DNA of 64,000 nt from Amoebophrya sp. A120 (GCA_905178155.1 CAJINV010000006.1:4513175-4577174); one strand, 5' to 3'. Positions 455 to 63,300 are shown, counted from the first letter of the stretch. Program-made: numbers and translations. The notes: a model not told the origin generated them from the sequence alone.

Positions 455-2330
455 CAAATCGACAAGGAAGCTGAGGAGCCTGAAGAAGCTCGATCTAAGT
501 ATATGGACATTTGCACAACATCGACATCCAACAGTACCAGCTCAAGAACCCATTTAGGAGGACAGGCAGCAGCCCCAACATCATCACTCCCTGTAGTACC
601 ACCAGCGCGAGGACCTCGAAGATGATGAAAACTGGCCCGATGAAGGTTTTCTGCTGGTGGGTGGCCTTGTATGGAAGCATCAGGATCGACATCGACAAAG
701 GTGAAATAAGTACTTAGTTTGGGATGCATAAAATGCGACGCAAAAATTGCCTCTATTGCAGAGGACAGAAGGGATGCGGATTGTAAGCCTGTTGAGGGGT
801 AGAAATTGAGCCGCTAAAAAAAGTAGCATGACAAAATGCGTCTTCCTTACCCAAACAGCGCTGCAAACTGGATTTTAGGTCTGCCCAAATTTGTCATGCG
901 CCACGTGAAAACTAGGCAACAACTGGTATCCGTTTTATGCATCACAAATTATTTCAAATTCAACCCTGACGATTTCGATCCTGACACTTCCATACAATGA
1001 GCTGGGCAGGTCCCGTCTGCTTATCCTGTGCAAAAGTATCGTGCTCGTAGTAATTGCAAACATGCATTACAAATTTTGCTCTTAAGGTAAATCCGCATTA
1101 CAAATTTTCTTTCTCATGCTGAGGAAATTTGTAATTCATTTATACGAGGAGTACGATACTTTTGCAATGCATACTGCTTTTCGGGGAGCAACCAGATGAA
1201 CCTGGTCTCGTCCTTATCAAATGCAAATATGTCTGGGTCTGGAAACTTGTAATGCTGCGTCGGGAATAGTGGATGCTCTGTAATGCACAGCCAAGCATGA
1301 GAAATATCTGCGCTCCTTTGTGCTGCGTTTTTCGCATGACAAGCTGCGTTTTTGCATGAAAGGAAAAAGGGTCTCTTCTTGAACACGCATCACAAACTTT
1401 TGGGTCATGCCAGACAAGCATGACAAATCTCGGAAACGGAATCTTCCAGACCCAGACATTTTTGCATTTGATAGTTCTCGACAGGCAACAACATGTACGA
1501 CACTGCACAACTCGACGCCCTTCCCCTTTATCGTATAGCATGAACGGCAATAGTACAACCATCAGCAACGTTGCCGGTTTTGCATGACAAATTTGCAGTG
1601 CAGTGTGCCGCTAGTTGGGGTCGTGCCAGAACTTGTCATGCAAACAGTGCCACGAGGCAAAAAAAGGGTGGAATGTGGATTGGGTACTGTTTTGCATGAC
1701 AAATGAGGGGCAGGGGGGGTTGTGCACTGTCATATTAACATGCCGCTTTTATTCGTCGAGGCGGTGCGCAAGAAAGCGAGTCCTTCGCTTGTTGACCAAA
1801 TGCATGGCTTTCGTCGCTTCTCGGGTAGGGGCACCAGCGCTTTGGACTTTGACAAGTGGTCGCAGATGACGACGCAGGAGCTGCCGGAAGAAGAACGTAT
1901 CAACTGCAAAGGATTTGTTGACTTCGGTCGTGTGGTATCAAACGGAAAAATCCCCCCTCCCCATATCGAAAAGATATGTCTCCGAAAATTTGTGTTGCTG
2001 ATTTGTGAAGACCACAAATCGGGTCTGCCTTGCAAGAAGGCCCACTCAGGCTGTCCGCCACGTTATGGAGGCGAGTTGTAATGCTGTAAGGCATACAGGG
2101 TAGCCGGCTACCATGCTAGGCGCCTACACCAAAAGGCCCCCGCCTAGGCTCAGGATCTGCGTGCATTCCTCTACTGCAGCACAAGTGTGCTTTTTTGTGT
2201 ATCCAAATCCAGCATCAGCACTTTCGTTTTGATATGGGGAGGGGGGATTTTTCCCTTTGATATGTGGTCCTCTGGAATTTTTAAAATACCGGAACCGGGA
2301 TTGCACGACGGCTTGCCTCCGTGTATTAAG
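455..2330 (+). CDS. Introner-interrupted coding fragment of unknown function, paralogous to the 5' part of the gene at 11500-21317; boundaries uncertain
   Basis: atgccgcttttattcgtcgaggcggtgcgcaagaaa (1740) resembles atgccgctttttgtggaagcggtcagcaagaaa (~12914). Five TIR elements interrupt the region. Confidence 0.4.
670..994. mobile_element. Introner, family I
   Basis: TIR tatggaagcatcaggatcga...tcgatcctgacacttccata; degenerate TSD CCTTG/CAATG. Confidence 0.7.
1022..1173. mobile_element. Introner, family A
   Basis: tat..tgcaaaagtatcgt...acgatacttttgca..ata; TSD CTGCT. Confidence 0.85.
1215..1473. mobile_element. Introner, family B
   Basis: tatcaaatgcaaatatgtctgggtctggaa...ttccagacccagacatttttgcatttgata; TSD GTCCT/GTTCT. 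Confidence 0.88.
1496..1734. mobile_element. Introner, family F (degenerate left end)
   Basis: tacgacactgcacaac...gttgtgcactgtcata; ACATG on both sides, offset by 3 nt on the right. Confidence 0.65.
1936..2262. mobile_element. Introner, family C
   Basis: tatcaaacggaaaaatcccccctccccatatc...gatatggggaggggggatttttccctttgata; TSD TGTGG. Confidence 0.88.
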
Positions 2331-2744
2331 ATCTGTATGATTTTTGCATGACACGTGAGAACGCGACCGCGTTTGTCATGCAGAAACTACGCAGGTAGAG
2401 TTGCAGTTTCAGTGGAAGCGCACGCTGCGAGTGGGAATAGTAAAAAGCGTCAAGAAGTTGCTGCACAGAGAGCTCTAGTGCGTCTGCGTCTGGTGTTGAA
2501 GATGGACATGTTTGTATAAAATATGTAGGTTTATGTCGCTGTAGAGTTGTTGAAAATGCTGATTAAGATTAAGAGCAGTGTCGTGTTTGGTCGTGCTGCC
2601 CGTCAAGAAGTACTTAAGTATGATCGGGTCGTCGTCCCGTTTATTCACAATCCTCGTCGGGCCAAGAACTCCGTCCAGAGGACCGAAAGATCACTTCTTT
2701 TGTTATTTTGCAGTTGATACTATGTGAAACTGAAAGCGGAGAAG

Positions 2745-11499: not shown

Positions 11500-14400
11500 G
11501 CTGCACTGTGTCACGTCGCGGAGCCGAGTCAATACCTATCTGTACGCAGAAGTACCAGCAGACGGCATTTTTGTGACTGCAGTTGTCAGGAACATATGCA
11601 TTGCAAAAATGTCTGGGTCTGGAAGAGTGCATGTTTGTCATGCTTGTCTGGCATGACTCTTAAATCTGTCTTGCACGTTACCCAAGACCTCGACTTTTCT
11701 GTGATGCAGAAACGCGGTTTGTCATGCAGAATAGGCAACACCTATAAGCTCAGAAACTTGTCATGCTGAGGCAGCACTTGTGGCCTCATCATGAGACGCC
11801 ACCCAGCATCACAAGTTTCCAGACCCAGACATTTTTACATTTGATAGAACAGGAGCAGGAACGAATCAAATCTTCGCGCTCGTGCGTATGGCGTTCTCAA
11901 ATGTTACATTCTCAACTGTTACATGATTTGTCATGCAAAATGAGCATCAACGTCCACACAGTGAAGCTACCTCGCGTGACAAATTCTGGAAGGGCTAAAC
12001 AGCATGGGAATCTGTGCCGGATTTGTAATGCAAGAGTTGCAAGATCCGGCCTTTCCCTGTTGCCAACATTCTTGCATCACAAATTCATGTAACAGTTGAG
12101 AATGTAACAGTTGAGAGCGCCATAGTGCGTCGTAAAGTTGAACCGCAACCGACGCGGAAGGCCACTGGCGCGGCTGCTGCGAGGTAAGGGTATTTTTCTG
12201 TGGATGTAGTAGTAACTAGACTGGGATTTCGGTTTTTTTTGCTTTGGGCTACAACAGTGCCCACGGGGGCACGAGCACGTTCTAGATACTTACCTTTACA
12301 ACCAAGCCCTTTAGTTACCGGAGCCGCTTGTCAAGAACAAGTGGCATACGGACGACAAGTTCGTCGTGCGCAGCTGTGGCCCTGCATGATTCTTGACACA
12401 GAAACTCTACGAGCGCCTGGATTACTAGTGGGTCGTGACGAGAGAAACGCTCACTTAAATAAAGCACGACGTTGACGAAGAAAGAAAACTTCATGAAAAT
12501 ACATGGTAAAAAAGCCTGCTTGCAAATAGAACGAAACTATTACTATCCTAGTGTGCATTCTGTCTCTACTTGCGCATTTGCGCTTGCAAATGAGCGTAAT
12601 AATCACCAGGGAGGATGTCCTCCTAATAAATTTTGTTTCACTTCGAATTTGTTATTTTAACTCACGACAGGACAAGCCACAACATGGCTACGTCGTGTGC
12701 AGCCGCCACCGCCATCATGAAAAAAACTGGCGCGAAACTCCTCTACTTATGGGCGGCCTTGGGAGGTGGACCAGGTCGGCTGTACTTGTCGGGAATGGAT
12801 GGAAACTTCTGCACGGGGAGTGCGCAACAAGCGGGGGGTGTTGGTGACAAGAACATCCAGTACGATCCGCTGCTCAACAGCCTGATCTTCTTGACGGGCA
12901 CAGGAACAAACTATATGCCGCTTTTTGTGGAAGCGGTCAGCAAGAAAAAGGACATTGATGTTGATGTGGATGACCTCCGGATGCAAAGTTTTGTCTCCGA
13001 AGACGAAGAAGAGGGCGATCCCGGTTCTTCGCCAGTGTCGATGACCTCGCAGTCGATGGAGACTTCTCGAGTTCTTGCACCAGCCTCCTCGTCGGACGAC
13101 ATGCTGTCGGGACATGATGAAGAGGTTGCGGAAGATGTACTTGCCGTTCTCGTATCAAACGCAAAAATGTCTGGGTCTGGGAGCTTCTGAGACTTGTCAT
13201 GCACGTTTTGCATGAGCCATGATGTCTATGATGCATGCCGTAGCATGACAGATTTTTCGAGGGGTTCTCTATGCCTATTTCGCATGACAAATAACCTATC
13301 CGCGTAGCAAAAATTACACTCCCTTTGCTACTCATGCAATAAAAACGTTTTTGGAATCCAAATGCAGCATCACAAGTTGCATTCTTCCAGACCCAGACAC
13401 TTTTACATTTCATATCTCGAGGGAACTGCCACTGAGCAGACGCAGACCAAGGTGGATCATGACGATCTTGGTGCCGGCGTTGTACGTCGTCCATTGTCGG
13501 CAGCAGCGTCTCGCTCTCGCAACAACAACAAAAACTCGTCCCCGCCTACTACAACTTCATCCTCGCCCGATGAAACAACGACCGAAACGACCCGGCGTCG
13601 CCCTGCCGGCTTTCTGGAGCGCCAGGCTGGGGGCGAGCCCTCGGCGCTGTTCGCCGCTACGCTGTATTAAATGCAAAAATGTCTGGGTCGGGAAGGTTGG
13701 AACTTGTGATGCTAACTTAGGACTGTAAAAAAATCTGTATTGCATGACCAGCAAGAGGTGGAGTCTAGTTAGTGCTACGCGGGAAGGGCGTTTGTCATGC
13801 GGAGTAGGCACCAGGAAGCCTTCTGAAAATCTGTGATGCTAGGGCGTGCGTTACAGGCGTCCTGGGTCATGCAAAACATGCATGACAAGGAAGTCTCAGA
13901 ATCTTCCAGACCCAGACACTTTTGCATTTGATACGCTGTCCGCGTGGGAGGCCGGGGCCGAGGTGGTGCGCCGCGCCTCCGCCGGCTGGACGACGGGTCG
14001 TGGTGGCGGCCACTTTGGCATTTCCGCCAAAGGGGATGGGGAAGAAGAGCATGTCCCCGCTAGTACAACTCCTGCTGTATCAACAGCGGCGGAGATCATG
14101 AAAGGAGCCGCGGGAGAGGACGAAAACGAAGCGGGGCACCGCCGTCCTGAAGACGACCAATTGCTGCCAGGAGCGCCGTTGTTCTTGGAGGGCCCTGCGG
14201 AGGACGAGGCTTCCCTCGCGGAGGAAGGGTCTGCAGCGGCGATGGCGCTGTCGTTTGTGGAGCAGGAGGCTGCGAAAGAGGTGGACGTGGAACAGCAGCG
14301 AGGGGAGGTTTCGACGATTCTCTACCACATGACCTTCGTTGCTGAGGCGACGTTGCGCGAGGTGAAGCTCGAACACACGTTCCCGCCCGCTACAGAAGTG

Positions 14401-40071: not shown

Positions 40072-40408
40072 ATGGGCTACGTTCTTCGACGACACATGAG
40101 AGCCGCACACCTGAGCAAGAAAAATCCTGCGCCGCTCTATAATTGCTCGGTTGCCGGGTTCTTGATTGCAACTGCAGGTGCTTGTATTGCAGGAGCACTA
40201 GCAGCCTCGCATCACACGAGGACCTACACTGGCGAGAAAGCAGCAGAGGGAGCTACGAGGACCCACAGCCGCCTCCTTTCAGAAGAGCTACCCGGGGATG
40301 CGGACGCTGCGGCCGGTCCTGTCGTGTCCCCCGCCATGGTGGATCCACCTTTTCCAACAAGCGCGGAGAGTACAACATCTCCTACTTTCGCGGTAGGAAC
40401 AACGGGCG
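40072..40408 (+). pseudogene. Truncated 5' paralog of ORF 42574-45351
   Basis: MGYVLRRHMRAAHLSKK...ELPGDADAAAGPV matches MGYSFRRRMRAAHLSKK...ELPGDADAAAGPV, then breaks at the duplication junction. Confidence 0.8.
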
Positions 40409-46402: not shown

Positions 46403-49400
46403 ATGTCGACTGTCCGTGGAGGTGCAACATCCGGTTCATTTGTGCCGCGAAGGGACGACTACCCCCGCCACAAGAGCTGCCCGTGGTCCACCGCGCGGCC
46501 ATCATGCTTGTCGTTTTCATCTTCTCCTACCAGTTTCTTTGCTTTGACTTTGTTCACCGTCTACCTTCGCTCCGCTTTTCATGTTTTACCGGTAGCCGCC
46601 TTCGGTTGCTTTTCCGATTACAGCATGTCATGGTGTATATGCATTGCAAAAGTATCGTACTCGTATGAATGCATGACAAATTTCCTCAGCATGAGAGATA
46701 AAATTTGTAATGCGGATTTACCTTAAAAAGAAGATTTGTGATGCATGACAATGCCTACGAGTGCAGTGCGATACTTTTGCGCAGGATAGTGCAACAACCA
46801 CACAGAGGAGTCTTGCGTTCACGACTACACGTTTTCCGTTTCTCACTTCCAACGGAAACTGAACAAGTACTACCAGAAAAACCACCGACCACCGCTGCTC
46901 GAGGCGTATTTTTTGATAAAAACCCCGCAACCCTACCAAGCGGAGTTTTTGGATGCGGATTGCGCGCCGCCGTTGATCATGGCGCTGTTGCTCGTGTGCG
47001 AAGCGAGGATGGAGTACGACAGTGGACAAGCGGTGCAGTTGTTTGAATTGGCGATGAACTACTTGCAGAACCGGGTTTCACCAGAACAAGCGTACATTCT
47101 CACCAACACCGACACGTGGCCGTTTAAGAAAGCGGTTGCGAGAATTCAGACCATGATGACGGAGCTGGAACAGCGCAAATTGAAGATCGAGGAAAAACTC
47201 GCGGTGCAAAAACAACCAAGAATAAAGGTCGATTTCGTGATTTCCCACTGCAAAGAGCAAGATTTGAATTGGCTCGTCGAGGATTTGACCCCGATGCTTG
47301 TGACCGGGCAGTATCAAATGCAAATATGTCTGGGTCTGGTGGAAGGTTGGAACTTGTGATGCTAACTTTGGACTCTAAAAAAATCTGTATTGCGTGACCA
47401 GCAAGAGGAGTCTAGTTTGTGCTACGCGGGGAGGGCATTTGTCATGCGGAGTAGGCATCAGGAAGCCCGCTACAGATCTGTGATGCTAGGCCGTGCATTA
47501 CAGACATCCTGGGTCATGCAAAATATGCATGACAAACCCTGCAACATTCCAGACCCAGACGCTTTTGCATTTTATAGCCAGGCGAGGGAGACGATTCAAC
47601 CGAAGCTGCTCGTGTACGAAAAGTGTCACCAGGTGACGGATGTCGGGAAGGTTTTTGAGCAATGGAACAACTACCAGAAGAGCAAGGGAAATGTGCAGAA
47701 AATCGCAACAGAGAATCCGTTTGACCTTGATCCGAGCAGGAATCCGGTGCAAGGTAGTTACGAGATCGTCCCGACGCCTGACCCGTCCTTTGTTGTATCA
47801 AATGCAAATATGTCTGGGTCTGGAAGAATGTAAGTTTGTCATGCTTATCTTTCACGACTCCTAACTTTGTGATGCATAAGCAGGATGCTGAGAGTCTTTT
47901 GCCTGTCATGCAAAAACTACGCAGTTTGCCATGCAGAAAACGGAACACATAGCAGCTCAAGAACTTGTCATGCTTGGGTGCGTATTGCAGTGCTTCCACC
48001 ATTCCCAAACCAGCATCACAAGTTTCCAGACCCAGACATATTTGCAGTTGATATGTTGCCCGGGGAGACGAATGCTCGGCGTACTTGAAACACATCCGGA
48101 ATTCCTTCGGAGGAGGAGGAGGTTTTGCCCACGGTGACGAAATGAAGTCGAACACGTTTGCCGACTTTACGTTTTTTCTCCACTCGGACCCCTGGGACCA
48201 CATGCACAAGGAATTTATGAGAGTGGACAACTAGTATTTTTGCCACCTGAAGATGAAGTCCCCGTCATGTTGTGCGGAAGAGGATACTAAGACCTAGGCA
48301 CTTATCTAAAGGATCATCATGCACCAGGAGCTCGGCTCCCTGATGAAAACAAACCGAAACTCACGCCCGCGATTGTAGCTCTGGGAAAGATGAAAGTGAT
48401 GAACGAATTTGAAGAAAAACGTATCGCAAGAAAAAAGTGTTACAGTTACACATTGTGTTGCAGGCCAAGCATGACAGACAAGCTCTGCCATGCGGGATAT
48501 GCATAGGAGCCTCGTTTCATAGGTGTTTTCCCGGAGGATTTCTGCATTACAAGTTTTCTCTCTCATGCAGAGAAATTTGTGTTGCTGAATTCACTACAAA
48601 TGTTTAACTGTAACACTTTTTTCGGTGGATAAAACGGAACATCTTATTAGTACAGCAAGAAGCGGATTTGGAAAAGTTTGAATTGAAGTATAACCCGCTC
48701 AGGTGTTACAATCTCAAACGTTACAATAGAATCTAGAATTTGTGTTGCAAAATGCGCAACATCTGGCCTACTCCCACAGGAGCGCGCATGACAAGTTTCG
48801 GAGCTCCAAACCCCATGAGAATCTGCCGAAATTTGTATTGCGAAAAGCCCGATTCTCTGTTTGGTACTCATGCTGTTCATGCAACACAAATTTCACATTC
48901 TACTGTAACGTTTGAGATTTACTGTAATACGGATCACCGTGTCCCTGAAAACAAACCGAAACTCACGCCCGCGATTGTCTGGTAACCAAATGCGTGCGCG
49001 CGCGCGCGCAGAGGTGGGCGCGCGCGCTCTGCGCGCTTGCGATATTGCTTAGCAAACGCAGCGCGAAGGCAGTTGCCGTTACCATATAGGGCAACCGCCG
49101 GGAGGCGTGAAGGTCAGGGAAATGGCCAGAAATGAAGCGGGAGAAGGGAAAAAAAGCGGACCAGATGGGAAAATGGCCAGGAGGTCAAAAATGTCGCAAA
49201 AATGGCAGAAACCAAGCGGGAGAAGGTGAAAAAAGAGCATTTTTGCGGTTTGGCCCACTTGATATCTGAAAAAGAGACGGACTATTTTTTGCTCCGCCCG
49301 GTGGCCAGCTGCGTTGGAGAAGCAGGCCCGCGACCTGTCCGGAAGCCTTGGGCCGCTTCGTAACTGGAAAAAGTTGGAAAAAAATGACAAAAAATTGCTT

Positions 49401-52047
49401 CATAACGTGGGTGGAAGCAATCGTCGGATTTTGTCCAGATCACCCGGGCCACTTTGAAAATGAAAAAAGATGAGAAATTGCGCAAAAGCGCAATCCTTCC
49501 GCAGGCTTCAAAACTGCCAGTCAGATGCGGGCGGTAAAAATGTCCAGGTCGCCGGGGCCACTTGGAAAATAGAAAAAGACCACTTGGAAAATAGAAAAAA
49601 GACTTGGAAAATAGAAAAAGATGAGTTTTCTAAAGGCTCCCTGAAAACAAACCGAAACTCACGCCCGCGATTGATAGAAGTCGCAATACCATAACCCAAG
49701 AAATTTCTCATGCGTTCATGCTGTACAAAGCGCCGCTCTACCATGAATGACTCAGCAACACAAATTCGCCGCGCGCTTCCAGACCCAGACAAATTTTTGC
49801 ATTTGATTCGCGTTCAACCCCCACGACTGGACGCACTATCAAAAGGAAAAATCCCCCCTCCGCGTCCCCATATCAAAAATCGGAAATCTGTGTTGCAGAT
49901 TTGTGGTCACACATCAGCTTTCTCATGCTAGAAGGCAGAAGAGGCGGACTGTAGTGCTGGGTGGCTTGGGAAAGCCTTGCATCCTCAGCATGACATGAGG
50001 CAGCTGGAAGTGGGAAACAGCATGACAAATCGCCTGCAATTAAGGCCGCGACTGCGTCGCTTGGCCTTCTAGCAATACAAGGCGAAGACTTGTGTACTCA
50101 AATACAGCATCACAAGTTCCCCCTGAAAAAAACCGAAACTCACGCCCGCGATTCCAGTTCTGGAAACTTGTATTGCAGACACGGCTCCTGCTCCTCGCGG
50201 GCCTAAATATAAGATATAGCGTTTAAATTTCTAACTTGTACGACCAACGAAGGGGAATAATGCTAATGTGGCACGTCGAGTTCTTCTTGTCTTCTCTTCC
50301 ATACACTTCATGTCCGTGATTCTGTCCACCATCGCCGCAAAAACTTTCGACAGCGAGAAAAACGGATTCTTACACCTCAACGGCCCGCGACACGTCCGAA
50401 CGCTGACGCCCTGCCTCCAGGCGGTGTCCGAGAAGATTTTCGGTTTCCCAGTGAAAAACTCCGTCGGGCCGTACTGTTATTCGAAGTAAAAACATCCCCA
50501 CCCCAGAGTTGTCATGCAAATCTGCATGCCAAAAAAGTTTCTCTTGCGAAGCCCCATGACGAGAAGCTTTTTCTAGTCGTGTTTTGGGATTTGTGATGCT
50601 AGAAATAGCGTGATATGATAGATCTGTGATGCTGCTGAACTAGCTGAACAGGATCACACTACGAGGGCGAACTTGTCATGCGAAACAACCAAAGTTGGCT
50701 GATTTGTCTAGCAGATATTCCCATCTTCAACACTCTGGTACTATGGGGACGCTTTTACTCAGGATAACTGTTGTGCCCAGTTCATGGTGACGAAGGAGCG
50801 CATTCTGAAGAGGCCGCAAAGCTTCTACAGCAACATGCTAACCATGGTAAATGGGACCATGACTGAAGATTTGTGTACCAGTAGCAAAACCGCGCGGTCG
50901 ACGCATTGCTACGGAATGGAATTCCTCTGGCACCTGGTGTTTTCCGACTTATCTAACGAGGAACTCCAGTATCTGAACGAACAGGGATCTTTAGTGCAGC
51001 AGCAACTGCATATGACAGTGCACAACTCCCCCTGCTCCCCCTCATTTGTAATGCAAACTGTCAAGAAATCAAGTCGCTGCCTTGTGGCACTGTTTGCATG
51101 ACAAAGTCCGGAACAAACCCAAACAGCACTACATTAGAGCCATACATTTGTCATGCATAGACTTCATGCTTGCTCGCGTGTGTATTGCTGCTCATGCCAT
51201 ACAAATGAAGGGGAGCAGCGGGAGTTGTGCACTCTCATACTGCAAAAAAACGAGTTACAACTGACTGACGAAGTCGAGCAACAACAGGCGATGATTGACT
51301 CGGTGTTCGACCCCCCATTATGCATTGCAAATATGTCTAGGTATGGGAACTACTTGTGATGCTGAACAGTGGATGGTGAAAACACTTTCGAATAGTACAG
51401 CCAAGCATGACAAGTTTGCAGAACGCCTTCTGATGTTGCACAGTTCGCATGACAGCCTCCTGCAGCGTTTTTGTAAATGTAATGACAAAAAAGGCCGCTG
51501 GGGGTCATGCAATACAGAATCCACATGAATGTAAGACCAGCATTGCAAGCTGCAACTTTCCAGACCCAGACATAGTTGCACTTCATATCAATTACGCCCG
51601 GACGACTGGTCGTTGCCGATTCAGTTCCGGCTCAAGTTTGGGGTGGAGCACGCGAAAAAGGATTGGAATGACGTCGTTTTATCGCCCAACGTCCCGAAAA
51701 AAATCGTGACGAGACAAGACTGGAATGGGAACGAATTTGTCTACACACTCGGCGGAGAGCAGCACGTCGCGAGCTTGAGCGGGAAAGGCAACAGCAGTCC
51801 GGCGGGAAGCGCGAGTGGGATCCAGAATCAAGCGCAACTACAGCAACCACAACATCAAGCCTTGGGATCATCCGGATCTGCAGCTTCTTTGCCGCCAATA
51901 TCGGTTAGGCCAGTAAGTAGTGACACAACTACTAGCGCAGGAACTGGAACTACAGCTTCCGTTGGTGCTTCATCTTCTTTGAGTGCTGCGCAACAGCAAC
52001 TGAGAAACGCGAATGCCGCTGCTAGTATGTTGAACCAACAGTTCTGA
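46403..52047 (+). CDS. DUF3431-like protein, probably secreted or type II membrane; 8 exons
   Basis: Spliced motifs FVISHCKEQDLNWL, RGDECSAYLKHI, ADFTFFLHSDP, YCCAQFMVTKERILKRPQSFY and YGMEFLWHLVF match my recollection of the DUF3431 pattern. Hydrophobic N-terminal segment; 7 introners. Confidence 0.8.
46638..46788. mobile_element. Introner, family A
   Basis: TSD GTGTA/GTGCA. Confidence 0.87.
47312..47576. mobile_element. Introner, family B
   Basis: TSD GGCAG/GCCAG. Confidence 0.87.
47796..48053. mobile_element. Introner, family B
   Basis: TSD TGTTG. Confidence 0.9.
48334..50153 (+). repeat. Four ~35-bp direct repeats (ccctgaaaacaaaccgaaactcacgcccgcgatt) separated by unique spacers of ~566, ~657 and ~444 bp
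   Basis: Copies at 48334-48375, 48942-48977, 49635-49673 and 50121-50153. Confidence 0.92.
48422..48631. mobile_element. Introner, family G, inside a captured exon fragment
   Basis: TSD AAACG; similar to 35117-35326. Confidence 0.9.
50478..50766. mobile_element. Introner, family D
   Basis: TSD ACTGT; frame restored (PYC|CAQ). Confidence 0.88.
51011..51239. mobile_element. Introner, family F
   Basis: tatgacagtgcacaactccc...gggagttgtgcactctcata; TSD CTGCA. Confidence 0.9.
51319..51587. mobile_element. Introner, family B
   Basis: TSD CCCAT/TCAAT. Confidence 0.8.
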
Positions 52048-52969: not shown

Positions 52970-55900
52970 ATGCAGTTCTTCGCTCGTGGTCCTAATGCGC
53001 CATCGTGGCCGTCCCACAGAAGAGGGCTATGCATTGCAAAAGTATCGTACTCGTATAAATGCATTACAAATTATTTCCTCAGCATGAGAAAGAAAAATTG
53101 GTAATGCAGATTCGCCTTGGAAACAAGATTTGTAATGCAAGGCCCGCATTTCTTGTACGAGTTGTACGATACTTTTGCACAGGATAAGGGCTCGTCCTCG
53201 TGAGCAACCTCTTGTTTTGCCCGCCTCTACTGCGGAAATGGTTCTTTTTGCTTGGTTCCGTCAGCACCGCCTCCAACGATGGCAGCTCTACTACGCCTTT
53301 TCGGGCGTCCGCAACGATCCCGGCGGCGACCGCGCTCTTCACCTGGTCGGGAGACGAGGATGAGGATAACAGCGCAATTATCCTGAGTAAAAACGTCCCC
53401 ACCCCATAGTTGTCATGCAGATTTGCGATTACAGGAAGATTTGTAATGCGCATCTCCGTGGGAGGCATTTCCAGTTGCGTTTTGGAATTTGTAATGCTGT
53501 AAACGGGATGAGCAGATGGCTTTGTGATGCGGCTGCACTTGCTAAACTGCACTACACTACGGACTGGAATTTGTCATGCGTTGCTCCCAAAGCCTCTGGG
53601 TTTGTGTTGCTAAGTTCCCAACTTGACTATGGGGTGGGGACGTTTTTACATATGATAGCAATCTGGGAAGATGTGGAGCGAGAAAGTTTCTTGCAAGATG
53701 AGGAAGAGTATGACTTGCAAAAGTTGTACTAGCATAAAGTGCAATACAAATTGGCTCAGCATTGCGGATTTACATATAGCGCCTAGATTTGTAATGCATA
53801 ATTAACAGCAATGAGTACTAGCACGCTACTTTTGCAACGCATAAAGAGGATTGGTCCACCGCCGGGACGGAGGTTGGAACCGGAGCGGGGACGACAACAA
53901 GAACGGCGAGGAAGAGAGCCACGAAAACTGCAAGTAAAAAAACCGCTGGTGTGGTAATAGACGATGGCGAAGAAGCAACAGCTCCTGAGAAGGAGGAAGA
54001 ACTACCGGAAGCAGCAGGAGATGACGTAGTAGGTGACGCAGCAAAAGCAATACGACCAGATGAAGACAAAGAGGAAGGTCTACTTCCAGAAGTAGAACCT
54101 CCAGATAAACAAGAGGACCAAGACCGTGAAGTAGATGAACCCAGCAAAACTGCATCCTCGTCCTCCCCCCGAGATGCCGCTGCTGCAGCAACCTCAACAT
54201 CTTCAGACTCCGACGACCCCGAAATATGCATTGCAAAAGAATCGTACTAGGAGAGATAGCATTTAACAAATTTTTTTAAGAATAAAAACGCAACCTGTGA
54301 TGCTAAATCAGGTGGAATATTAGATTTGTCTTGCACGGTTGCTGCAATTATACTACGAGTGCGATAGTACTTTTACAATGCATACGAAAAGTCCGTCTAC
54401 GAAAGGGGGTTGTATCCGAAAGACCCGGATTTCACACGACAAGTGAACTGCGACTTTTCATATGCAATACAAATTTCCCGTACATCATGTACAAGATGCA
54501 TCACAAAAAAAAAAGATGCATCACAATTTTCACCAATTTAGGGCGTAACACTTCATCATGCTAAACCAGGATCGGAGCCAAGTTTTGTGATGCAGAGACC
54601 GCATGTGTACGTGTACGGGAAATTTATTGTGGATATTTCAAGGCCAGAATGGCAGCAGTACCGGCACGTTTACGAAGTAGCGCTGAACCGGGAGGACCAA
54701 CATGACGACGACACGAGAAGCAACCAAGAAAAGATCAACGAGCTAATCCAGTCCACGAGGATACTGTCGTCTGTCTTATGGGCACGCGCGAGAAACGTGA
54801 CCGATATTTTGACCTGCAACGTCGGGATTATCGCGGGTTATCAGCGCCTCTCGCACGCGCTGCTGATCGCGGGTCTCGGTCCCAAAACCGCACTGTACCG
54901 CTACCGGTTGTTGCAGTTAGCTCTGATCTATGAACTGCAAAAGTATCGTAATCGTATAAATGCATTACAAATCTTCTCAGCATGAGATTGAGAAATAAAA
55001 TCTGTGATGCTGATTTGCCTTGACAAAGAAATTTGTAATGCAAGACCTGCATTTATACGAGTCCGACACTTGTTTTGCACAGCATATGATCTTCATTTTC
55101 ACACTGAGAAACGCGAACAAGATACCGAAAGTCGCAGGGGAGTATTGGGCAGCGTCGGAGCATATGCATTGCAAATATGTCTGGGTCTGGAATAAACTTG
55201 TGATGCGGGTTAGCGAATCTTAACGACGCCGCAATTGACGGCCCAGCATGACAGGTTTCATCAGGGGTGCTAGGTGTTGTCTATTCTGCATGACAAACTG
55301 CGTTTCTGCATGATAGAAAAGTTGTGAGGCTTTTGGGTGAGTTGCATCACAGGCTTGAGATTCATGCCAGGCTAGCATGACAAATCTCGCAATCTTCCAG
55401 ACGCAGATGACATGATTGCATTTGATAGAGCAGTACATTATTCCGAATATCATGGCGATAAGAAGACACGTGGAGCAGGTGGAATTGCAGCAACGGAAGG
55501 AAAGAGAGTGGTTCACCGGCAGAACCGTCGCGAACACCTTTAGAGACCCGAACATGCGAATAGCGATCGTCAGTATCTGCGCCTACCCGCCGACAAGTAC
55601 TTATGATATAAATACTGATGCATTTTTGTGGTCATGCGAATGGTTTGTGAGAATTTTGTAGCTGGTTGTAGTTCGACTTCATCAGCGAGAGAAGAATCTT
55701 GTGCCATCCCACAATTTGAATCCCGTGCAATTGCAAACTAAATGCGAATGCTTCTCTTTCAACTACTACAAATCAGGTGACATTGCTTTGAAGGACGTCA
55801 CACCCGTTAACCGCGAGGTCTACGCTATCATTTGTCAAAACGTCCCCGCCCCCGGGTTGTGATGCAGATTTGCAATCACAGGAACATTTGTAATGCGCAT

Positions 55901-58900
55901 CTCCATAAGAGGCGTTTGAACCGCCTCTCATGGAGATGCGCATTACAAATGAGAAACGCCGCGTTTCTAGTCGTGTTTTGGAATTTGTAATGCTGTAACC
56001 AGGATAAGCAGACGGATTTGTGATTCACGTTTGTCCTTGCTAGCCCGCACTACGCTAGTACAGACTGCAACTTGTAATGCGTGAGGCCCGAAAGCGAAGC
56101 TGCTAGGTTTGTGTTGCAAAATCCCCACTCTGGGGTGGGGATGTTTTTGCAGAGGATATACGCAAGGAAACACGGCTACGCGTTGCGGCTACACACCGAG
56201 CCGCCCTTATCGCACGAAAAAACTGTTTCACTGTGAACTTGTAATGCAGAAACTGCATCTCAGAAGTGTTTGTGTTTGTCTTGCTACACATGCAAGACTG
56301 GGAGTTTTTAGCTGCGTTTTCCCTTAGGAACCTCGCATGGCAAGTTTTGTGTGTCATGTGTAACAAACTTGTGATGCAGATCTTGCAAAATCATCACAGT
56401 GAAACAGTTTTTTCATACGATAACCCCTGCTGGGCGGGAACGTGCAGATTCAGCACGCGAAGCTAGCGACCGTGAACCACTACGTATAGAAGCTTCTAGT
56501 TTGCCATGCGTATTATATCACCAAAAGAAAGTTTTTGTCATGCGTACTTGACATGACAATCATTTACAACCCAAAAAATCATTCCAGATCCGCAGCGGTG
56601 AATTTGATTGGGTCGTGTGGCTCGATTGCGACAGTTATCAACTGCAAAAATGTCTGGGTCTGGAAGATCGTAACTTGTCGTGCTAGATCTGAATCCTGTA
56701 AAAGTCTGTGTTGCGTGATTACCAAAAGCTGTCCAGTTTTGACCTAATCGAGAGGCAGTTGCTCATGCAGGATAGGCATGGCAAAGACCTCACAAAGTCT
56801 GTCATGCTAGGTCCCGCATTCAGGAACTCGTGGGTCATGGAAGTCCTGCCATTACAAGTTTGCACTGTTCCAGACCCAGACACTTTTGCATTTGATAACA
56901 GTTTAATCATGAACCTGGACCACACCATTGATTCCATCATTTACCGGGCCGCCGGAAAATGGTCCTCGAACAACTTTTATCACGTGCAAATAAAGTATCG
57001 TACTCGTATAAATGCATTACAACTTTCCTTAGCATGAGAAAAAAAGATTTGTAATGCTGATTTACCTTGAGAAAAAGATTTGTAATGCATGACTGCATAC
57101 GAGTACGATACTTTTGCACAGGATAACTTTGCGGGCGAGTGGAAGGACACCTGGGACCCGAACGTGATCGAGATCAAAGTGAACGAGAACGTATGCAGTG
57201 CAAAAGCATCGTGATCGTATAAATGCATTACAAGTTTCCAGGAAACTTCCTCAGCATGAGAAATAAAATTTGTAATGCTGGTTGACCTCAAGGAAAAGAC
57301 TTGTAATGCATGATTGGAATACGAGTACGATACTTTTGCACAGGATAAAACGAGGTGACCGCGAAAGCGATCCAGTTTGGTACCGCGACCGGCCACATGG
57401 AGGGGAAAACGTTGGTGATGGAGTTTGAAAACGCCATGGAGCCGTTAGAAGGACAGCTGCAGCAGACGGAAGAAGGGGATATCATTCAGTGGAGCAACGG
57501 AGCGGTTTGGCACAGAACCCGGAATTATCTACTGCAAATATGTCTGGGTCTGGAACATGGCAACTTGTCATGCCAAATCTGAATCATGTAAAGATCTGTG
57601 TTGCAGGATTACCAAAAGCTGGCCACTTTTGACCAAGTTGGCCGGGGGTTTCTCATGCAGAATAGGCATGATAGAGGTGAGTAAGTCATGTCTCTAGAGA
57701 CTGGAGGTCTCACAGACGGCGCAGAAATCCATGCTAGAAGACAAGATTGAGATAGAGAAAATGAGGTCTCACAGAATCTGTCATGCTAGGTCCTGCATTT
57801 TTGCAGGCCTCATGCGTCATGTAACACCTGCATGACAAGTTTGCATCTTTCCAGACCCAGACATATTTGCAATGCATAGGAAAATCGAGCCTTGCTTGAA
57901 CCCAGCGGACTGTCCGGAATTGAAAGGCTTGGACGATAGCATTGACTTGCTGATAACAGAAGAATATCCATTGCAAAAGTTTCACCATCGGGCGCGTAGT
58001 ACTCATGGCGATGTCGCATGACAAATAGAAGTTTCTTACCTGAATCAGCATTGCAAACGTCATTTTTGCTTGCCGCGAATGAAAAATTGGTGATGCAAGG
58101 TGCTTATACTAGTACGACACGGATGTACAACTTTTGCGTTCCATAAAGAAGGCTGGGGACTCAGCAGCGCCAACTGGATGGTATCGATACATTATAGCGA
58201 TTTGGTTATTGGCACTTTCATGCAAGAGCGAGCTGATGCTAGAAAGCACTTACTCGTAGCTTGGGCTAGCTAGCCGTCCGTGGACTTGTCCTCACTGTTT
58301 CTTGGGTACGATTACGTATAGATCGATTCACTTCTACGCGATATTCATCCTTGGAGAAAACATGGGAGTTCTTCGCGAATTTTGGGAACGATAAAAACAA
58401 AATTTTGGAATTTCGCGGATTTTTGAAAGTGGTAAAAATAAAATTTGAAAGTTTCGTGGGTTTCTAGTAGCTTTCATTTCAGATTGGGCGTGCACGAGCA
58501 TGGTTTTGTTATGAATGTGTCTACCCAAGAACTCCTTACGGCTCAGATTCTTATCCCTGAGCCCTCGCCTCGAACATTGTCATTTGTCAAGGTGGCAATT
58601 AAAATTAAAATTTTGAAGTTTCGCGGATTTGCCAGCTGGCCTCCAGCTTGGCCAGGCAAAATCGCCTACTTTTTCGACAAGTGAAATCGACCATAGCGTG
58701 GAGGGAGCGAACGCGCGAAGGGTATTTTGGTCCAGCCATGCTAGTCCAGCTGGCCAGGCAAAATCGTCTATTTTTTCGACACGTCAAATCGGCCATAGCC
58801 TCGGGGGAACGAAAACGCGCGCGCTATTTTGGCCCGGCCGAGCTGGCCCAGCTTGGCCAGGCAAAATCGTCTCCTTTTTCGACACGCCAAATCGACCATA

Positions 58901-61900
58901 GCCTCGGGGGAACGAAAACGCGCGCGCTATTTTGGCCCGGCCGACCTGGCCCAGCTTGGCCAGGCAAAATCGTCTCCTTTTTCGACACGCCAAATCGACC
59001 ATAGCCTCGGGGGAACGAAAACGCGCGCGCTATTTTGGCCCGGCCGAGCTGGTCCAGCTTGGCCAGGCAAAGTCGTCTACTTTTTCGACACGCCAAATCG
59101 ACCATAGCCTCGGGGGAACGAAAACGCGCGCGCTATTTTGGCCCGGCCGACCTGGCCCAGCTTGGCCAGGCAAAATCGTCTCCTTTTTCGACACGCCAAA
59201 TCGACCATAGCCTCGGGGGAACGAAAACGCGCGCGCTATTTTGGCCCGGCCGAGCTGGCCCAGCTTGGCCAGGCAAAGTCGTCTACTTTTTCGACACGTC
59301 AAATCGACCATAGCCTCGGGGGAACGAAAACGCGCGCGCTATTTTGGCCCGGCCGAGCTGGCCCAGCTTGGCCAGGCAAAGTCGTCTACTTTTTCGACAC
59401 GTCAAATCGACCATAGCCTCGGGGGAACGAAAACGCGCGCGCTATTTTGGCCCGGCCGAGCTGGCCCAGCTTGGCCAGGCAAAATCGTCTACTTTTTCGA
59501 CACGTCAAATCGACCATAGCCTCGAGGGAACGAAAACGCGCGCACTATTTTGGCCCGGCCGAGCTGGCCCAGCTTGGCCAGGCAAAATCAGCTACTTTTT
59601 CGACACGTGAAATCGATCATAGCCTCGGGGGAACGAAAACGCGCGCGCTATTTTGGCCCGGCCGAGATAGCCCAGCTTGGCCAGGCAAAATCGTCTACTT
59701 TTTCGACACGTCAAATCGACCATAGCGCCGCGGGAGCGAACGCGCGGAGGACATTTTGGCCCGGCCAAGCTGGCCTCCAGCTGGCGAGGCAAAGTCGGCT
59801 ACTTTTTGGGCGGGCGAAATCGACCATAGCCTCGAGGGAATGAAAACGCGGAGGACATTTTGGCCCGGCCAAGTTGGACTCCAGCTGGCTAGGCAAAGTC
59901 GGCTACTTTTTGGGCGGGTGAAGTCGACCATAGCGCCGCGGGAGCGAACGCGCGGGGGGCATTTCGGCCCGGCCAAGCTGGACTCCAGCTGGCGAGGCAA
60001 AGTCGGCTACTTTTTGGGTGGGCGAAATCGACCATAGCCTCGAGGGAACGAAAACGCGGAAGACATTTTGGCCCGGCCAAATTGGACTCCAGCGAGCTGG
60101 CTAGGCAAAGTGGGCTACTTTTTGGGCGGGTGAAGTCGACCATAGCGCCGCGGGAGCGAACGCGCGGAGGACATTTTGGCCCGGCTCAGCTGGCCAGCAA
60201 GAGTCGGCTCGGCCCAGCTGGGCCAGGTAAAGTCGCCAACTTTTTCTTGGGCGGTGGCGAAATGGGCCATAGCGGCGAGTTCGACGACAACAAAACATAA
60301 CGAAACTGACAGGTTCGTCGTTCTCATTGGACCATCAATTTCCTGGATCAAGCGCTCGACGTTGCCCATGTCCAGATCCTATGTATTGCAAAAGTACCGT
60401 ACTACCGTACTAGCATATAGTGATCAATTCGGTCAGCATCAGGAATGGAATTTGTAATGCGGACGCAGCTTAGGAAAGGGATTTGTAATGCATAAATACA
60501 ATTGCTACGAGTGCGACACTTTTGCACACCATAGATCCCGCTTTTTGGTGACCAAGATGCGATCATTTACCTGGTCATGAACGACCAAACTATGAGAGTG
60601 CACAACCCCCCCTCCCGGTCCCGCTCATTTCCATTTGCCATGCAAAATCCCAAATCTACCTCTTGTATGTTAGCACTTTTTGCATGACAGATTCCGACAG
60701 CCAAAACAGCACTACAATCCTCCAGGAATTTGTCATGCAAAAGCTGCAGCTTTGCCAGCGCTTGCGTTGCTGTTCATGCAACACAACTGAGGGGGACGAG
60801 GGGGATTTGTGCACTCTCATACAAACCCTGCGAGGTTTAACCGACGTATTGGCCGACGATGCGGAGCAGATCACTTCCTTAAAGGAAAGCGAGCAACTCC
60901 CGGACCCTTTGGACAGTCACGTGCGCGTGATCCCGCAACGGGAACTGAATGCGTATGATCTATGGCGTTCTCATCAAATGTTAAACTCTCAGCTAATACA
61001 TGGCTTGTCATGCAAAAACACTATCACCCTTCACACGATCAAGCCTTCTTCGAATGACAACTTCTCGACGCGCTACATAGAACTACAATACGCCGCCCCA
61101 AATCTGTAATGCAAAAGTCGCAATCTTCCTCCACTCCTTTGCCTTTCACTTTTGCCATTGTTGCATTACAAATTTATGTAGCAGCTGAGAATCAATGTAA
61201 CGTTTGAGAACTCGATATGATCATCTAAACGCGTACACCATGGACGTGGATTATGAAAGTGCACAACTCCCCCTCCCCCTCGTTTGTCATGCAAAATCCC
61301 AAATCCACTTGCTGCCCTGTAGCACTGGTGATTACGTGTATGGGAGTCAGCATGGTGATTACGTGTATGGGAGTCAGCATACACGTAGAGTTGTGATCTC
61401 CTTCGGGTCGGTTTTCTTCTTGTGTCGCTTTCTTTTGTGCCACCGGCGTTCTTCAACAAGAAGACTTTCTCGCGCCTGATTGTCTGGTATGCATGTGAGA
61501 ATTTGTATGTCGATTTGGTTGCACGGGACTGAGACTGAACAGACGGCGAGCGTTTTCAGTTTTGACGTGTATCGGAACTGACACTACAGTGGCCAGCTCG
61601 AATAGAGCTTGTTCGTTCCTTGTGGCTTTCGTGTTCCCCTGTCTGTGCCATGGGTCTATGAGAGACTTCGACGTAGAAGTAGTAACGGTAGTTTTGTAAT
61701 CCACGTATTTTTCGCGTGGTTGTCCTAGGTGAGCTAGCACCCGTGTCCGTGGACAACCATCTAAGACGCGGAAAATAGCGAGCACTTTAGTTTTTGGCTT
61801 TCTCTGGTTTGGTCATGATTTTTGGACCGCTTCTTAGGGTGGTCGAGAAAGCCAGACTAAAGACGGCACGGGCAGAAGTGGATCGGTTTAGAAGCGCGCT

Positions 61901-63300
61901 AGTATGTAGTGTTAGTTAAGGTAGATTATAGTTATTTTAGCTTGGATTAAATAGTTTATTTCCCGTCTTGGGGTTTGTAATGTAGTTGCTCCGCCCTTGT
62001 TGTTTCGGGCTTGTTCCGACCTTTTGCATGATCTGATGCTGTCTCGGTCGGTGGTGTGTGTGGTTTCATCTCTGCTCCCTCGGTTGCGGACGTTTTTGCA
62101 TTTGTCCGCTGCGACAGTTCGCCTTGTTTGCAGCTGCTCGCCATGAAAGCAACTACATTACATCTTGCCTCACTTTTTTGAGATGGGTTCTTTCGTATCT
62201 AGGACTGTGCCATAGTAGATGACTTTACCGCTTTTTTACTTTTCTTTTATCCCTCAGCGCTGGTGGGTCTGCCGGCAAAATTATCCCTACTCAGATAGCT
62301 ACAAAGCTCATTCCGCAGCCGTCCCAGGAGCTCTTGTGGCTGTCTCTCGGTAGTGATCGCTTTGCCCGTGCTTATTCCGCTCAGAGTTTGCTGGGTAGGT
62401 GGTTACCGTTTGTAGCTTTTATAAAGAAATGGGACGCCCTGCCCTTAGCCTTCCAACATGACAAATTCCGGAAGCCCAAAGAGTAATACACAAGGCGCAT
62501 AAATTTGCCATGCATAGGCTCCATGTGTGCTGGTGTCTGTATTGCTGCTCATGCCATACAAATGAGGGGAAGGGGGAGTTGTGCACTGTCATATGGATGG
62601 GTACCAGTTCGGCGATCTGCTCGTTACCTTCCCACAGTGCAAGGACGCGAGCTGCAACGCGTTGTTCCACCTCGCCGCGGAGTACGCGCACGAACGGGAC
62701 GAGTTCGCGTTCAATCCCCACGACTGGACGCACGTCCGGCTGTTTGGACCGAGGGACTTGGTCGCCATGTGGTGGCGGAGACATATGGAGGAGGAGAGGA
62801 GGCGGGAAAACGAAAATGAGGATGAGGACGACAACGACGATGAAAATGCTAGCGGTAATAAAGCGGAACAGGATGATGTTGAGGAAGACGATAACGATGC
62901 AGCGAGTACAACAAGTTCTAACCCGGCGAAAATCTCTGTTCGGGGGGAGGAGCAGCAACAGGAGGAGTCGTTACTTTCCTCCGTCGAGGGACTGGAAGAT
63001 GACGTGTACGAGGAAGGGAACAACCCTGCTGACGAGGCAGAGGCTGGCGTGGACGCGGAGACAGGAGAGGACGTCCTAGATGCAGGGCAACAAGATCTTC
63101 ATGACGACCAGTACGATGATGAACCAGGAGTAGAACCAGGAGTAGAACAACCCGAGGATCCGGAACTAGAAGGGGGAGTAGATGAAAACGAGCACCTTGC
63201 TGAGCCTGAAATCATGGAAGAGGAAGAGCATTTCACTGGGGACGGGGAAGGCTTTGAAGAGACCTACGATGCTGGGGGCGGGACTGTGGAGGATGAGTAA
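52970..63300 (+). CDS. Glycosyltransferase family 34-like protein (GMA12/MNN10 galactosyl/mannosyltransferase type) with acidic N- and C-terminal extensions; 22 exons
   Basis: Spliced motifs RIAIVS, NREVYARKHGY, HAKL, EFDWVVWLDCDSLIMN (DxD), DLLITEEGWGLSSANWMVRRSHW, GDQDAI, IPQRELNAY and YQFGDLLVTFPQC occur in GT34 order. 18 introners plus GT-AG introns at 55597-55776, 56484-56587 and 58181-60312. Start codon tentative. Confidence 0.87.
53028..53186. mobile_element. Introner, family A
   Basis: TSD AGGGC. Confidence 0.88.
53379..53657. mobile_element. Introner, family D, opposite orientation to 36808-37086
   Basis: TSD GCAAT. Confidence 0.88.
53709..53843. mobile_element. Introner, degenerate family A
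   Basis: TSD AAGAG. Confidence 0.82.
54225..54384. mobile_element. Introner, degenerate family A
   Basis: TSD CGAAA. Confidence 0.82.
54461..54635. mobile_element. Introner, family J
   Basis: tatgcaatacaaatttcccgtaca...tgtacgggaaatttattgtggata; TSD TTTCA. Confidence 0.82.
54929..55086. mobile_element. Introner, family A
   Basis: TSD TGATC. Confidence 0.87.
55163..55427. mobile_element. Introner, family B
   Basis: TSD GAGCA. Confidence 0.87.
55597..55776 (+). other. Canonical GT-AG intron
   Basis: gtactt...atcag; spliced frame YPPTSDIALK. Confidence 0.75.
55826..56158. mobile_element. Introner, family D, with internal fold-back
   Basis: TSD TACGC; spliced frame EVYARKHGY. Confidence 0.88.
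56208..56422. mobile_element. Introner, family H
   Basis: tatcgcacgaaaaaactgtttcactgtga...tcacagtgaaacagttttttcatacgata; TSD GCCCT/ACCCC. Confidence 0.85.
56484..56587 (+). other. Canonical GT-AG intron carrying introner-type internal motifs
   Basis: gtatag...ttccag; frame VNHY|IRSGEFDW. Confidence 0.78.
56636..56897. mobile_element. Introner, family B
   Basis: TSD ACAGT; frame LDCDS|LIMN. Confidence 0.9.
56978..57125. mobile_element. Introner, family A
   Basis: TSD ACTTT. Confidence 0.88.
57192..57347. mobile_element. Introner, family A
   Basis: TSD GAACG/AAACG. Confidence 0.87.
57526..57878. mobile_element. Introner, family B, with ~90-bp internal insertion
   Basis: TSD GGAAT/GGAAA. 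Confidence 0.85.
57965..58145. mobile_element. Introner, degenerate family A
   Basis: TSD AAGAA. Confidence 0.8.
58181..60312 (+). other. 2.1-kb canonical GT-AG intron containing a satellite
   Basis: ATG|gtatcg...ctgacag|GTT gives NWM|VRRSHW. Confidence 0.82.
58628..60270. repeat. GC-rich tandem satellite with ~103-bp unit, ~16 copies
   Basis: Exact 103-bp period in the core (ORF starts 58829, 58932, 59035 ... 59550); diverged ~104-bp units at the edges. Confidence 0.95.
60380..60533. mobile_element. Introner, family A
   Basis: TSD GATCC. Confidence 0.85.
60591..60821. mobile_element. Introner, family F
   Basis: TSD CAAAC. Confidence 0.88.
60961..61217. mobile_element. Introner, family E
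   Basis: TSD TGATC. Confidence 0.85.
61252..62593. mobile_element. Introner, family F, expanded by a ~1.1-kb internal insert
   Basis: tatgaaagtgcacaactcccc...ggggagttgtgcactgtcata; TSD TGGAT; frame MDVD|GYQF. Confidence 0.87.

Follow-up and report, generated by a model that had tools for sequence, protein, structure and literature searches.

According to Farhat et al. 2021 (PMC7789003), non-canonical introns make up more than 60% of the 66,565 introns of Amoebophrya sp. A120. Their inverted repeats consist of TAT, seven variable bases and three or more A, their direct repeats measure 3-5 nt and lie 1-5 nt from the splice sites, and the introns are supported by RNA-seq, with the mechanism left open; a repeat of 5 bp is not new either, as the legend of Fig. 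S19 of the same paper reads 'Direct repeats of 5 bp'. In Gozashti 2025 (PMC12130899), the supplement assigns the A120 family 38 to DNA transposons with terminal inverted repeats (TIRs) of the Ginger type, with '5-bp TSD, TA/TA Termini' (TSD, target-site duplication) and integrase-like homology, and the main text describes this family as being without the expected Ginger termini and TSD. For IS3EU/GingerRoot, TA..TA termini and a TSD of usually 6 bp are reported (PMC10045372, PMC12730594), and a Karlodinium-parasite genome has canonical introns. Here we analyze the elements with TAT...ATA ends (introners) in a 64,000-nucleotide stretch of DNA from the marine parasite A120 (GCA_905178155.1 CAJINV010000006.1:4513175-4577174; hereafter the window), together with the positions at which they appear to be cut out of transcripts.

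Elements of the window and their removal from transcripts

In order to catalogue the elements, each TAT was paired with downstream ATA triplets, the similarity of the two arms was scored, and the candidates were curated. This yielded 65 elements of 135-1342 bp (median 258 bp) spanning positions 670..62593, in agreement with a preliminary description of this DNA, made from the sequence alone, which had proposed about 65 elements from about nine TIR families over the same span. At least four further spliced, decayed elements (17301-17777, 17841-18101, 20432-20756 and 48216-50303) lie outside that count and outside our first catalogue; the 69 elements together occupy 20,481 bases, about one third of the window. 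The number of families depends on the cut-off: clustering by body similarity gives nine multi-member clusters, as had been proposed, plus nine singletons, and clustering by TIR gives seven plus eight. The elements are the A120 introners of Farhat et al., as the preliminary description had suggested: the TIR consensus of the window has the TAT start, about seven variable bases and the A run of the published definition, and two exons of the window are 100% identical to Amoebophrya sp. A120 proteins.

The direct repeat measures 5 bp in 39-48 TIR-similar pairs, depending on the threshold, and 6 or 7 bp in none, and 5-bp repeats among TIR-similar pairs were absent from five Markov-simulated control sequences. 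Perfect TSD pairs flank 51 of the 65 catalogued elements; in the three reconstructable genes G2 (18 junctions), G3/4 (7) and G5 (18), the original figures of 43 junctions and 34 perfect pairs were reproduced exactly. The claim that the TSDs follow no sequence rule and no GT-AG requirement also stands, with about 0 bits of sequence information at the TSD positions and, in the register described below, GT..AG borders in 0 of 65 introns (G at +1 in 18, terminal AG in 5).

The RNA evidence consists of contigs of the runs X3-X6, which were taken as RNA by guess and represent two samples of one study; 15 of their 27 joints were listed, and the raw-read runs X9 and X10 gave 0 and 38 reads, which provided no test. 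At all 14 directly readable element joints (12 among the joints listed and 2 from adjacent pieces), the element plus 5 nt is gone, and 12 of these directly read joints lie in contigs of G5. Length sums gave the same result for 11 more elements, with 365, 181, 538 and 78 nt observed exactly as predicted, so that contig evidence covers 22 of the 43 junctions. The preliminary description had suggested such a mapping of transcript junctions, and had named the use of nearby GT-AG sites as an outcome that would contradict it; in-frame GT..AG pairs occur near 24 of the 65 elements, and none is used at the 12 element joints listed. Element-to-element joints (e.g. 53558 to 56103) derive from other copies and were set aside; in run X1, where they filled the joint table (15 of 739 listed), only the coordinates of the pieces were used. 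Removal very probably occurs at the RNA level, because the same contigs that carry the element joints also lack two GT-AG introns, and because single X1 contigs run through both junctions of six elements (X1 also covers intergenic DNA).

Deletion of the element plus 5 nt restores the reading frame as originally stated, giving open reading frames (ORFs) of 3524, 720 and 953 amino acids (aa) in G2, G3/4 and G5, with at most 1269, 286 and 248 aa when 0, 1, 3, 4, 6 or 7 additional nucleotides are deleted instead. The frame alone cannot fix the length at 5, because it is also kept by 2 (3542, 727 and 971 aa) and by 8 additional nucleotides (2145, 713 and 935 aa); the RNA contigs do fix it. Gap-free alignments were obtained at 15 of the 18 element junctions of G5 with its orthologue P0007 from strain A25, and at 4 of the 7 element junctions of G3/4 with homologues of its DUF3431 protein.

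A single register for the intron borders

The position of the cut is revealed by mismatched repeats, and can be expressed as k, the number of bases of the 5' repeat that are retained. All informative junctions (13/13) are compatible with an intron that begins 1 nt ahead of TAT and stops 4 nt past ATA, a register (-1/+4, or k=4) in which we have high confidence; the intron therefore has the form N-TAT...ATA-NNNN. The RNA contigs limit k to at most 4 at 30150 and 14454, 1-4 at 56208, at least 1 at 57192, at least 2 at 15542 and 47312, at least 3 at 51319, 4 or 5 at 46638 and 4 only at 16742, and the annotated proteins limit it to at least 1 at 15116, 3 or 4 at 17301 and 20432, and 4 only at 17841; two junctions (16742 and 17841) thus permit k=4 alone. 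Boundaries predicted with k=4 before the second RNA alignment were recovered in five of six cases, the sixth (57526) not being among the joints listed. When rebuilt at k=4, G1 and G3/4 are identical to the annotated proteins of 1409 and 686 aa over 15 and 7 junctions, respectively.

Several individual introns, all on the + strand, bear on this register. In the intron 16741..16926 the flanking 5-mers match at only one of five positions, and the RNA piece ends at 16740, which fits only k=4; the protein allows k=4 or 5. An alternative end of this element at a second ATA (16928; 6 nt further, with a perfect repeat) is rejected by both the RNA and the protein P0006. The decayed element within 17840..18105 has an ACA end and no direct repeat, and the sole joint that fits the protein, 17839 to 18106, is again -1/+4, so that one element end (of 17841-18101) may read ACA without breaking the register; this intron is placed from the annotation, the RNA joints listed containing none for it. 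The introns 17300..17781, in which the arm ends are no longer predicted to pair, and 20431..20760 likewise contain decayed elements with no direct repeat (k=3 or 4 in both). In 46637..46792 a mismatched repeat forces k=4 or 5, and the RNA joint from 46636 to 46793 had been predicted beforehand. The composite element 48216..50303 (2,088 bp) has degenerate arms and nested fragments and is nevertheless removed as the element plus 5 nt, the 538 nt between the RNA pieces being as computed and in agreement with protein P0001. The -1/+4 register applies to elements of either orientation and as long as 2.1 kb, also where a direct repeat is missing.

These results modify the excision rule of the preliminary description. 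A single rule does hold in RNA, but the loss of 'one TSD copy' was an incomplete account: of the 5' copy only the final base is removed, together with bases one to four of the 3' copy, and the rule does not depend on a repeat. Within the introns, there is no information content at +1 and at -4 to -1.

A stop-codon test of the register was made in a second assembly (accession prefix JACKZZ01), in which a pattern scan covered 162 of an estimated 590 stretches and 156 loci were analyzed. There were four informative cases: two coding-strand cases excluded k=1 and k=0, and two favored k=5, one of which is the antisense of a coding-strand case and the other a 214-aa frame in L057. A fixed register was not found in the Amoebophrya introner and splicing literature (Farhat 2021, Gozashti 2025, reviews and the Karlodinium-parasite genome), a search whose scope excluded Figures S19-S23 of Farhat et al. 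and subscription papers, which may bear on the point; the apparent preprint of Roy et al. 2023 does not refer to Amoebophrya.

Three considerations weaken the evidence for the register and for its reading from RNA. Taken by themselves, the five junctions stated in advance reach only p=0.06 when a uniform random register is the alternative; the runs are contigs labelled as RNA by guess, from two samples of one study; and the annotation from which P0001 and P0006 derive may not be independent of these runs.

How the elements may be removed

In the -1/+4 register, position +2 of the intron is a U, position +3 a purine and position -7 almost always an A. These positions were compared with their mirror positions at the opposite element end in the second assembly, where 355 elements were found; 180 of them, oriented by ORFs and with at least 3 of 5 TSD matches, were retained and 175 were dropped, the orientation being inferred. 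U at +2 is present in 180/180, compared with 174/180 for its mirror A(-5) (Fisher p=0.03); a purine at +3 is present in 180/180, with changes only to G (4); and A(-7) is present in 179/180, its mirror at +4 varying four times. For +2 and -7 pooled, 1/360 variants compare with 10/360 at the mirrors (p=0.011). Such an asymmetry of the ends is not predicted by a symmetric DNA or stem signal, and is predicted by a donor site plus a branch point. The canonical introns of G5 start with GTAC, GTAT and GTAT, and two of the three have an A at -7. Relative to the U2-type pattern, the element introns have no GT/GC...AG borders and do have U(+2) and a purine at +3, in the inferred orientation.

The elements also fold into strong hairpins, with a median z of -6.5 (8 shuffles per element) and values below -2 in 60 of 63 elements. 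TIR positions 1-3 and 8-20 pair well and positions 4-7 poorly (26-39 of 65), and the pairing amounts to about 0.7 in the tip and 0.83 in the inner stem. This division of the TIR resembles the ends of insertion sequences, which consist of a tip plus a binding domain. Strong hairpins suit both a spliceosome and a nuclease/ligase model.

We give about an even chance to the proposal that a modified U2-type spliceosome, with its branch point at A(-7), measures from the ends of the element. According to this proposal, the non-coding TIR elements with their 5-bp duplications would be inserted by an integrase-type transposase encoded elsewhere. The intron's 5' end, N-U-A-U, would correspond to a canonical GUA(U) donor with a freed +1 position, and the A located 7 nt from the 3' end would serve as the branch point, the 3' cut being set by distance and not by AG. 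Instead of U1/U2AF, the long inner stem would keep both ends close to each other, and access for U6 and U2 would come from opening of the tip, which is loosely paired at TIR positions 4-7. Given a palindromic motif, nearly every insertion, whichever its orientation, would yield a clean intron, and this would explain the invasion. There are precedents for parts of this scheme, as fixed distances from the branch point to the 3' end are described in Entamoeba invadens (-8), diplomonads and parabasalids (bioRxiv 2022.06.08.495308), and non-canonical transposon introns are handled by the spliceosome in Fritillaria (PMC11282704). A wider proposal, which we put forward tentatively and consider slightly short of an even chance, is that a spliceosome freed from the +1 G and the terminal AG would need just a U and a purine at +2 and +3, respectively, together with an A at -7 for branching, all supplied by the palindromic TAT/ATA tips of the transposon itself; tens of thousands of 'variable' introns would then form one class, and insertions in either orientation and into any sequence would be scarless.

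Several observations weigh against the spliceosomal proposal. The p-values of the two comparisons become 0.06 and 0.04 in a stricter set of 143 elements, and significance is not reached for A(-7) by itself (p=0.37). The asymmetry depends on 16 variant ends with ORF-inferred orientation, and its test was prompted by an overlapping smaller sample, so it is not independent. Upstream of A(-7) the bases are a poor match to a branch consensus, with U at -9 in 27 of 65, and the conservation of TAT (0.94-0.98) is no higher than that of inner TIR positions in an unascertained test. The U1 small nuclear RNA was not detected in A120 (PMC7789003), and the observations from which a spliceosome is suggested include no lariat, circle or enzyme.

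An alternative is removal without a spliceosome, in which a protein endonuclease would read the base of the stem and cut 1 and 4 nt outside it, and a ligase would join the exons, as has been proposed for euglenids. Such an enzyme would produce the same register, and we consider it a real possibility, albeit one that we lean against. The signal is symmetric and elements in both orientations are spliced (77 same-strand and 87 opposite-strand pairs within families, with all host genes on the + strand), the stems are strong, there is no consensus around the cuts, and a G-U pair is preserved by several of the variants at the ends, in which A is replaced by G at +3 or -7; the lack of detectable U1 (PMC7789003) and the euglenid introns, whose pairing likewise has a constant offset (+4..+6 with -8..-6) and which are released as circles (PMC11282704), point in the same direction. 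However, removal in register is also seen for two elements, 17301 and 48216, whose arm tips are not predicted to pair, the tolerated changes are unlike between the 5' and 3' arms, and among six possible registers the one in use happens to put U at +2 and A at +3. A spliceosome using a branch site elsewhere (e.g. in an internal UGUNAU repeat), with the stem alone setting both cuts, is unlikely: the subterminal motif does read U-n-A-U on the transcribed strand and is present in most elements, but in that orientation only 1 of 76 motif copies lies in the last quarter of its element, and the symmetric motif is explained as a transposase-binding repeat.

Two further explanations were considered. 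During some stage of the life cycle the elements could be lost from the DNA, as happens to the internal eliminated sequences of ciliates, and the joined contigs would then be DNA; alveolate relatives do carry out such elimination, and the runs with joined forms were only guessed to be RNA. We regard this as extremely improbable, given that the joined contigs are also free of two GT-AG introns, the X1 contigs are unbroken through six elements, the register is asymmetric in transcript orientation, and the introns were validated by RNA-seq (PMC7789003). Alternatively, the register could vary among elements, as published, with the agreement at -1/+4 arising by chance. Most junctions have perfect repeats and cannot reveal the register, and the direct repeats were reported to lie 1-5 nt from the splice sites (PMC7789003), but k=4 is allowed at all 13 informative junctions, two of which allow nothing else, and a uniform register would yield such agreement with a probability of 0.077, 0.062 and 0.015 in the three junction sets; this explanation is therefore very unlikely.

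Origin of the elements

The elements almost certainly originate from transposons resembling miniature inverted-repeat transposable elements (MITEs) with a 5-bp TSD: they have TIRs, a TSD of constant length and dispersed copies, and are without coding capacity. Empty sites with one TSD copy correspond exactly to the elements at 38209 and 38508, and with flanking mismatches to those at 41152 and 48422, and the comparison shows that insertion adds the element plus 5 bp. TSD mismatches are spread evenly across the five positions. The second assembly carries the same families, with a perfect 5-bp repeat in 248 of 328 adjacent arm pairs and a 6-bp repeat in none. A subterminal 9-bp motif is common to the elements, 147 of its 154 copies being located inside them; eight short elements have no exact copy.

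The TSD of the elements agrees with the 4-5 bp of Ginger2/TDD. The termini of Ginger2 are TG..CA, and those of the elements are TA..TA, with TGT only as a rare variant. Transib, which has termini different from TAT...ATA, was rejected on that account. The TA..TA termini do agree with those of IS3EU/GingerRoot, but a 6-bp TSD was found in 0 pairs of the window and 0 of 328 in the second assembly, and membership in IS3EU fails because the TSD is 5 bp and not 6. The mobilizing enzyme would, judging from the element ends, probably be a transposase of the integrase type (IS3EU/GingerRoot/Ginger-like) encoded elsewhere, since the ends are TA..TA as in IS3EU/GingerRoot and family 38 was filed as Ginger. 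Consequently, the statement of the preliminary description that the elements fit no DNA-transposon superfamily was too strong in view of the IS3EU/GingerRoot ends and the 5-bp TSD of family 38, although the 6-bp TSD of IS3EU and the Ginger termini are indeed unmatched. Its other statement, that no transposase is present in the window, holds, as a Pfam search of all 136 stop-to-stop ORFs of at least 110 aa found no transposase or integrase family. This result speaks against the proposed enzyme, as does the fact that no transposase was found in A120 by Farhat et al. (PMC7789003). Among the 25 longest pairs in the second-assembly loci no ORF exceeds 238 aa, the 238-aa ORF having been judged by eye only, and the commonest TIR gave no match in a viral contig collection.

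Three observations concern individual elements. The copies at 18133-18411 and 36808-37086 are 97.8% identical, the youngest pair in the window, which points to recent movement. The 1,342-bp element at 61252-62593 contains a nested 1.1-kb insert that starts at a 27-bp tandem duplication and partly matches long elements in L008 and L059. An 820-bp low-complexity insert is found within elements of two TIR groups, at 27958-28777 and at L020:776-1573 (78.5% alike); the window copy has no Pfam match.

Host genes and other features of the window

All genes described here are on the + strand. Gene G1 (12684..21317; 1409 aa) has 15 element-type introns, and its -1/+4 rebuild is identical to the annotated A120 protein P0006, with further support from RNA contig pieces. 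Its elements are located at 13153-13414, 13665-13933, 14454-14875, 15116-15408, 15542-15859, 16742-16922, 17301-17777 (which contains 17618-17764), 17841-18101, 18133-18411, 18475-18754, 18783-19043, 19109-19414, 20064-20208, 20432-20756 and 20915-21164. A decayed paralogue of G1 with introners of its own, in which no long ORF could be restored, occupies 499-2400 and 3683-4414; one of its introners (1496-1734) has a TAC end and no repeat.

Gene G2 (23214..39156) encodes a coiled-coil-rich protein of about 3500 aa and has 18 element introns between 26789 and 38835, with RNA support from the joint of 30144 to 30311 and from a length sum across 31251 and 31692. A paralogous copy of G2 exons (41022..41150, + strand) is without the elements at 38209 and 38508, the empty sites having a single 5-mer, and adjoins an element (41152-41420) that is absent from G2. 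A tandem segmental duplication (38999-42840; 78% alike over 1.4 kb) comprises the 3' end of G2, intergenic DNA and the beginning of the following gene, and its copies gained different introners afterwards. An intron-free ORF of about 925 aa with no Pfam match lies at 42574-45351, amid otherwise heavily invaded genes.

Gene G3/4 (46403..52047) encodes a 686-aa DUF3431 protein identical to the annotated A120 protein P0001 and is represented by one RNA contig in each of the four runs. Its seven element introns contain the elements 46638-46788, 47312-47576, 47796-48053, 48216-50303, 50478-50766, 51011-51239 and 51319-51587. Gene G5 (52970..63300), a member of glycosyltransferase family 34 by its A25 orthologue P0007, has 18 element introns (53028 to 62593) and three GT-AG introns. 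Two of the latter, 55597..55776 and 56484..56587 (which starts with GTAT), are canonical with an A at -7 and are removed in the same contigs as the element introns. The third, 58181..60312, which starts with GTAT and has a C at -7, is deduced from ORF continuity and the orthologue alignment and is not among the RNA joints listed; a 103-bp tandem array of 15 copies (58634-60195) lies within this 2.1-kb intron.

Pieces that resemble captured sequence were also observed. At 48344-50153, within the 2,088-bp intron of G3/4, a 33-36-bp sequence occurs four times and separates fragments of 450-650 bp: a piece resembling a G2 exon that carries an introner of its own (48422-48631), pieces of other introners and a piece resembling a G5 exon. 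This looks like repeated templated capture of sequence like that of neighboring genes. The region 40409-41058 has the same architecture, a 35-bp direct repeat flanking about 580 bp of foreign sequence of which an inner piece is 93% like the element at 32584. The short second-assembly contig segment L067:70-783 joins matches to two window genes, at 29310-29743 (89%) and 17147-17317 (82%), around an element.

Comparison with known systems

The elements themselves are already known from Farhat et al. 2021, whose A120 introners share with those of the window the organism, the inverted repeats starting with TAT, short direct repeats, non-canonical borders, hairpins and a length of about 240-270 nt; they differ from the published account in having a 5-bp repeat, which is not required, and a single register of -1/+4. 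In Gozashti 2025 (PMC12130899), among the 50 of 58 A120 rows covered, most families other than family 38 are classified as 'TIR DNA, unknown' or unknown, automated TSDs range from 2 to 6 bp or are missing, splice calls are mixed and no common register is given. The TAYGG..CCRTA ends of IS3EU/GingerRoot in rust fungi resemble two element groups of the window, which start with TATGG; IS3EU/GingerRoot possess a DDE transposase related to integrases and have a TSD of usually 6 bp, compared with 5 bp in the A120 window. A superfamily claim for the elements is largely pre-empted by Gozashti 2025 and by IS3EU/GingerRoot.

Regarding removal, the nonconventional introns of euglenids share a MITE-like origin, a terminal stem whose distance from the cuts is fixed, a longer 3' overhang and the lack of GT-AG (PMC11282704, PMC11170887). 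The fixed-offset terminal stem is found in A120, with exceptions among decayed elements, and the CAG/CTG motif is not: the euglenid offset is +4..+6/-8..-6 with CAG/CTG, and that of A120 is +2..+4/-7..-5 with TAT/ATA. Circles have been shown for euglenid introns; in A120, the contig joints of X3-X6 that were listed (15 of 27) include no full-length circle joint. Fritillaria borealis also has TIR/TSD-derived introns without GT-AG, which are handled by the major spliceosome (PMC11282704, PMC13326754), but it prefers AG-AC and AG-AT ends and keeps U1, whereas A120 has no fixed base at +1, -2 or -1, and U1 went undetected there. The introner-like elements of Polarella and Symbiodinium (bioRxiv 2020.10.14.339549) belong to dinoflagellates, have TIRs and turn into introns through the loss of a single TSD length, some of them in both orientations; they recruit GT/GC/GA and AG from the TSD or the element, and the A120 elements need neither.

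In comparison with these systems, the new and testable part of the present analysis would be a -1/+4 register that is fixed and does not depend on the repeat, along with the candidate branch A. Borders formerly described as variable are replaced by a single register that predicts the sequence of every excised intron, the candidate branch nucleotide A(-7) and the bases to mutate, and that permits the re-annotation of the A120 non-canonical introns. It also makes invasion cheap, since the element and exactly one TSD length are lost whatever the target sequence or orientation; if removal is spliceosomal, the loss of the GU-AG rule would be unusually complete.

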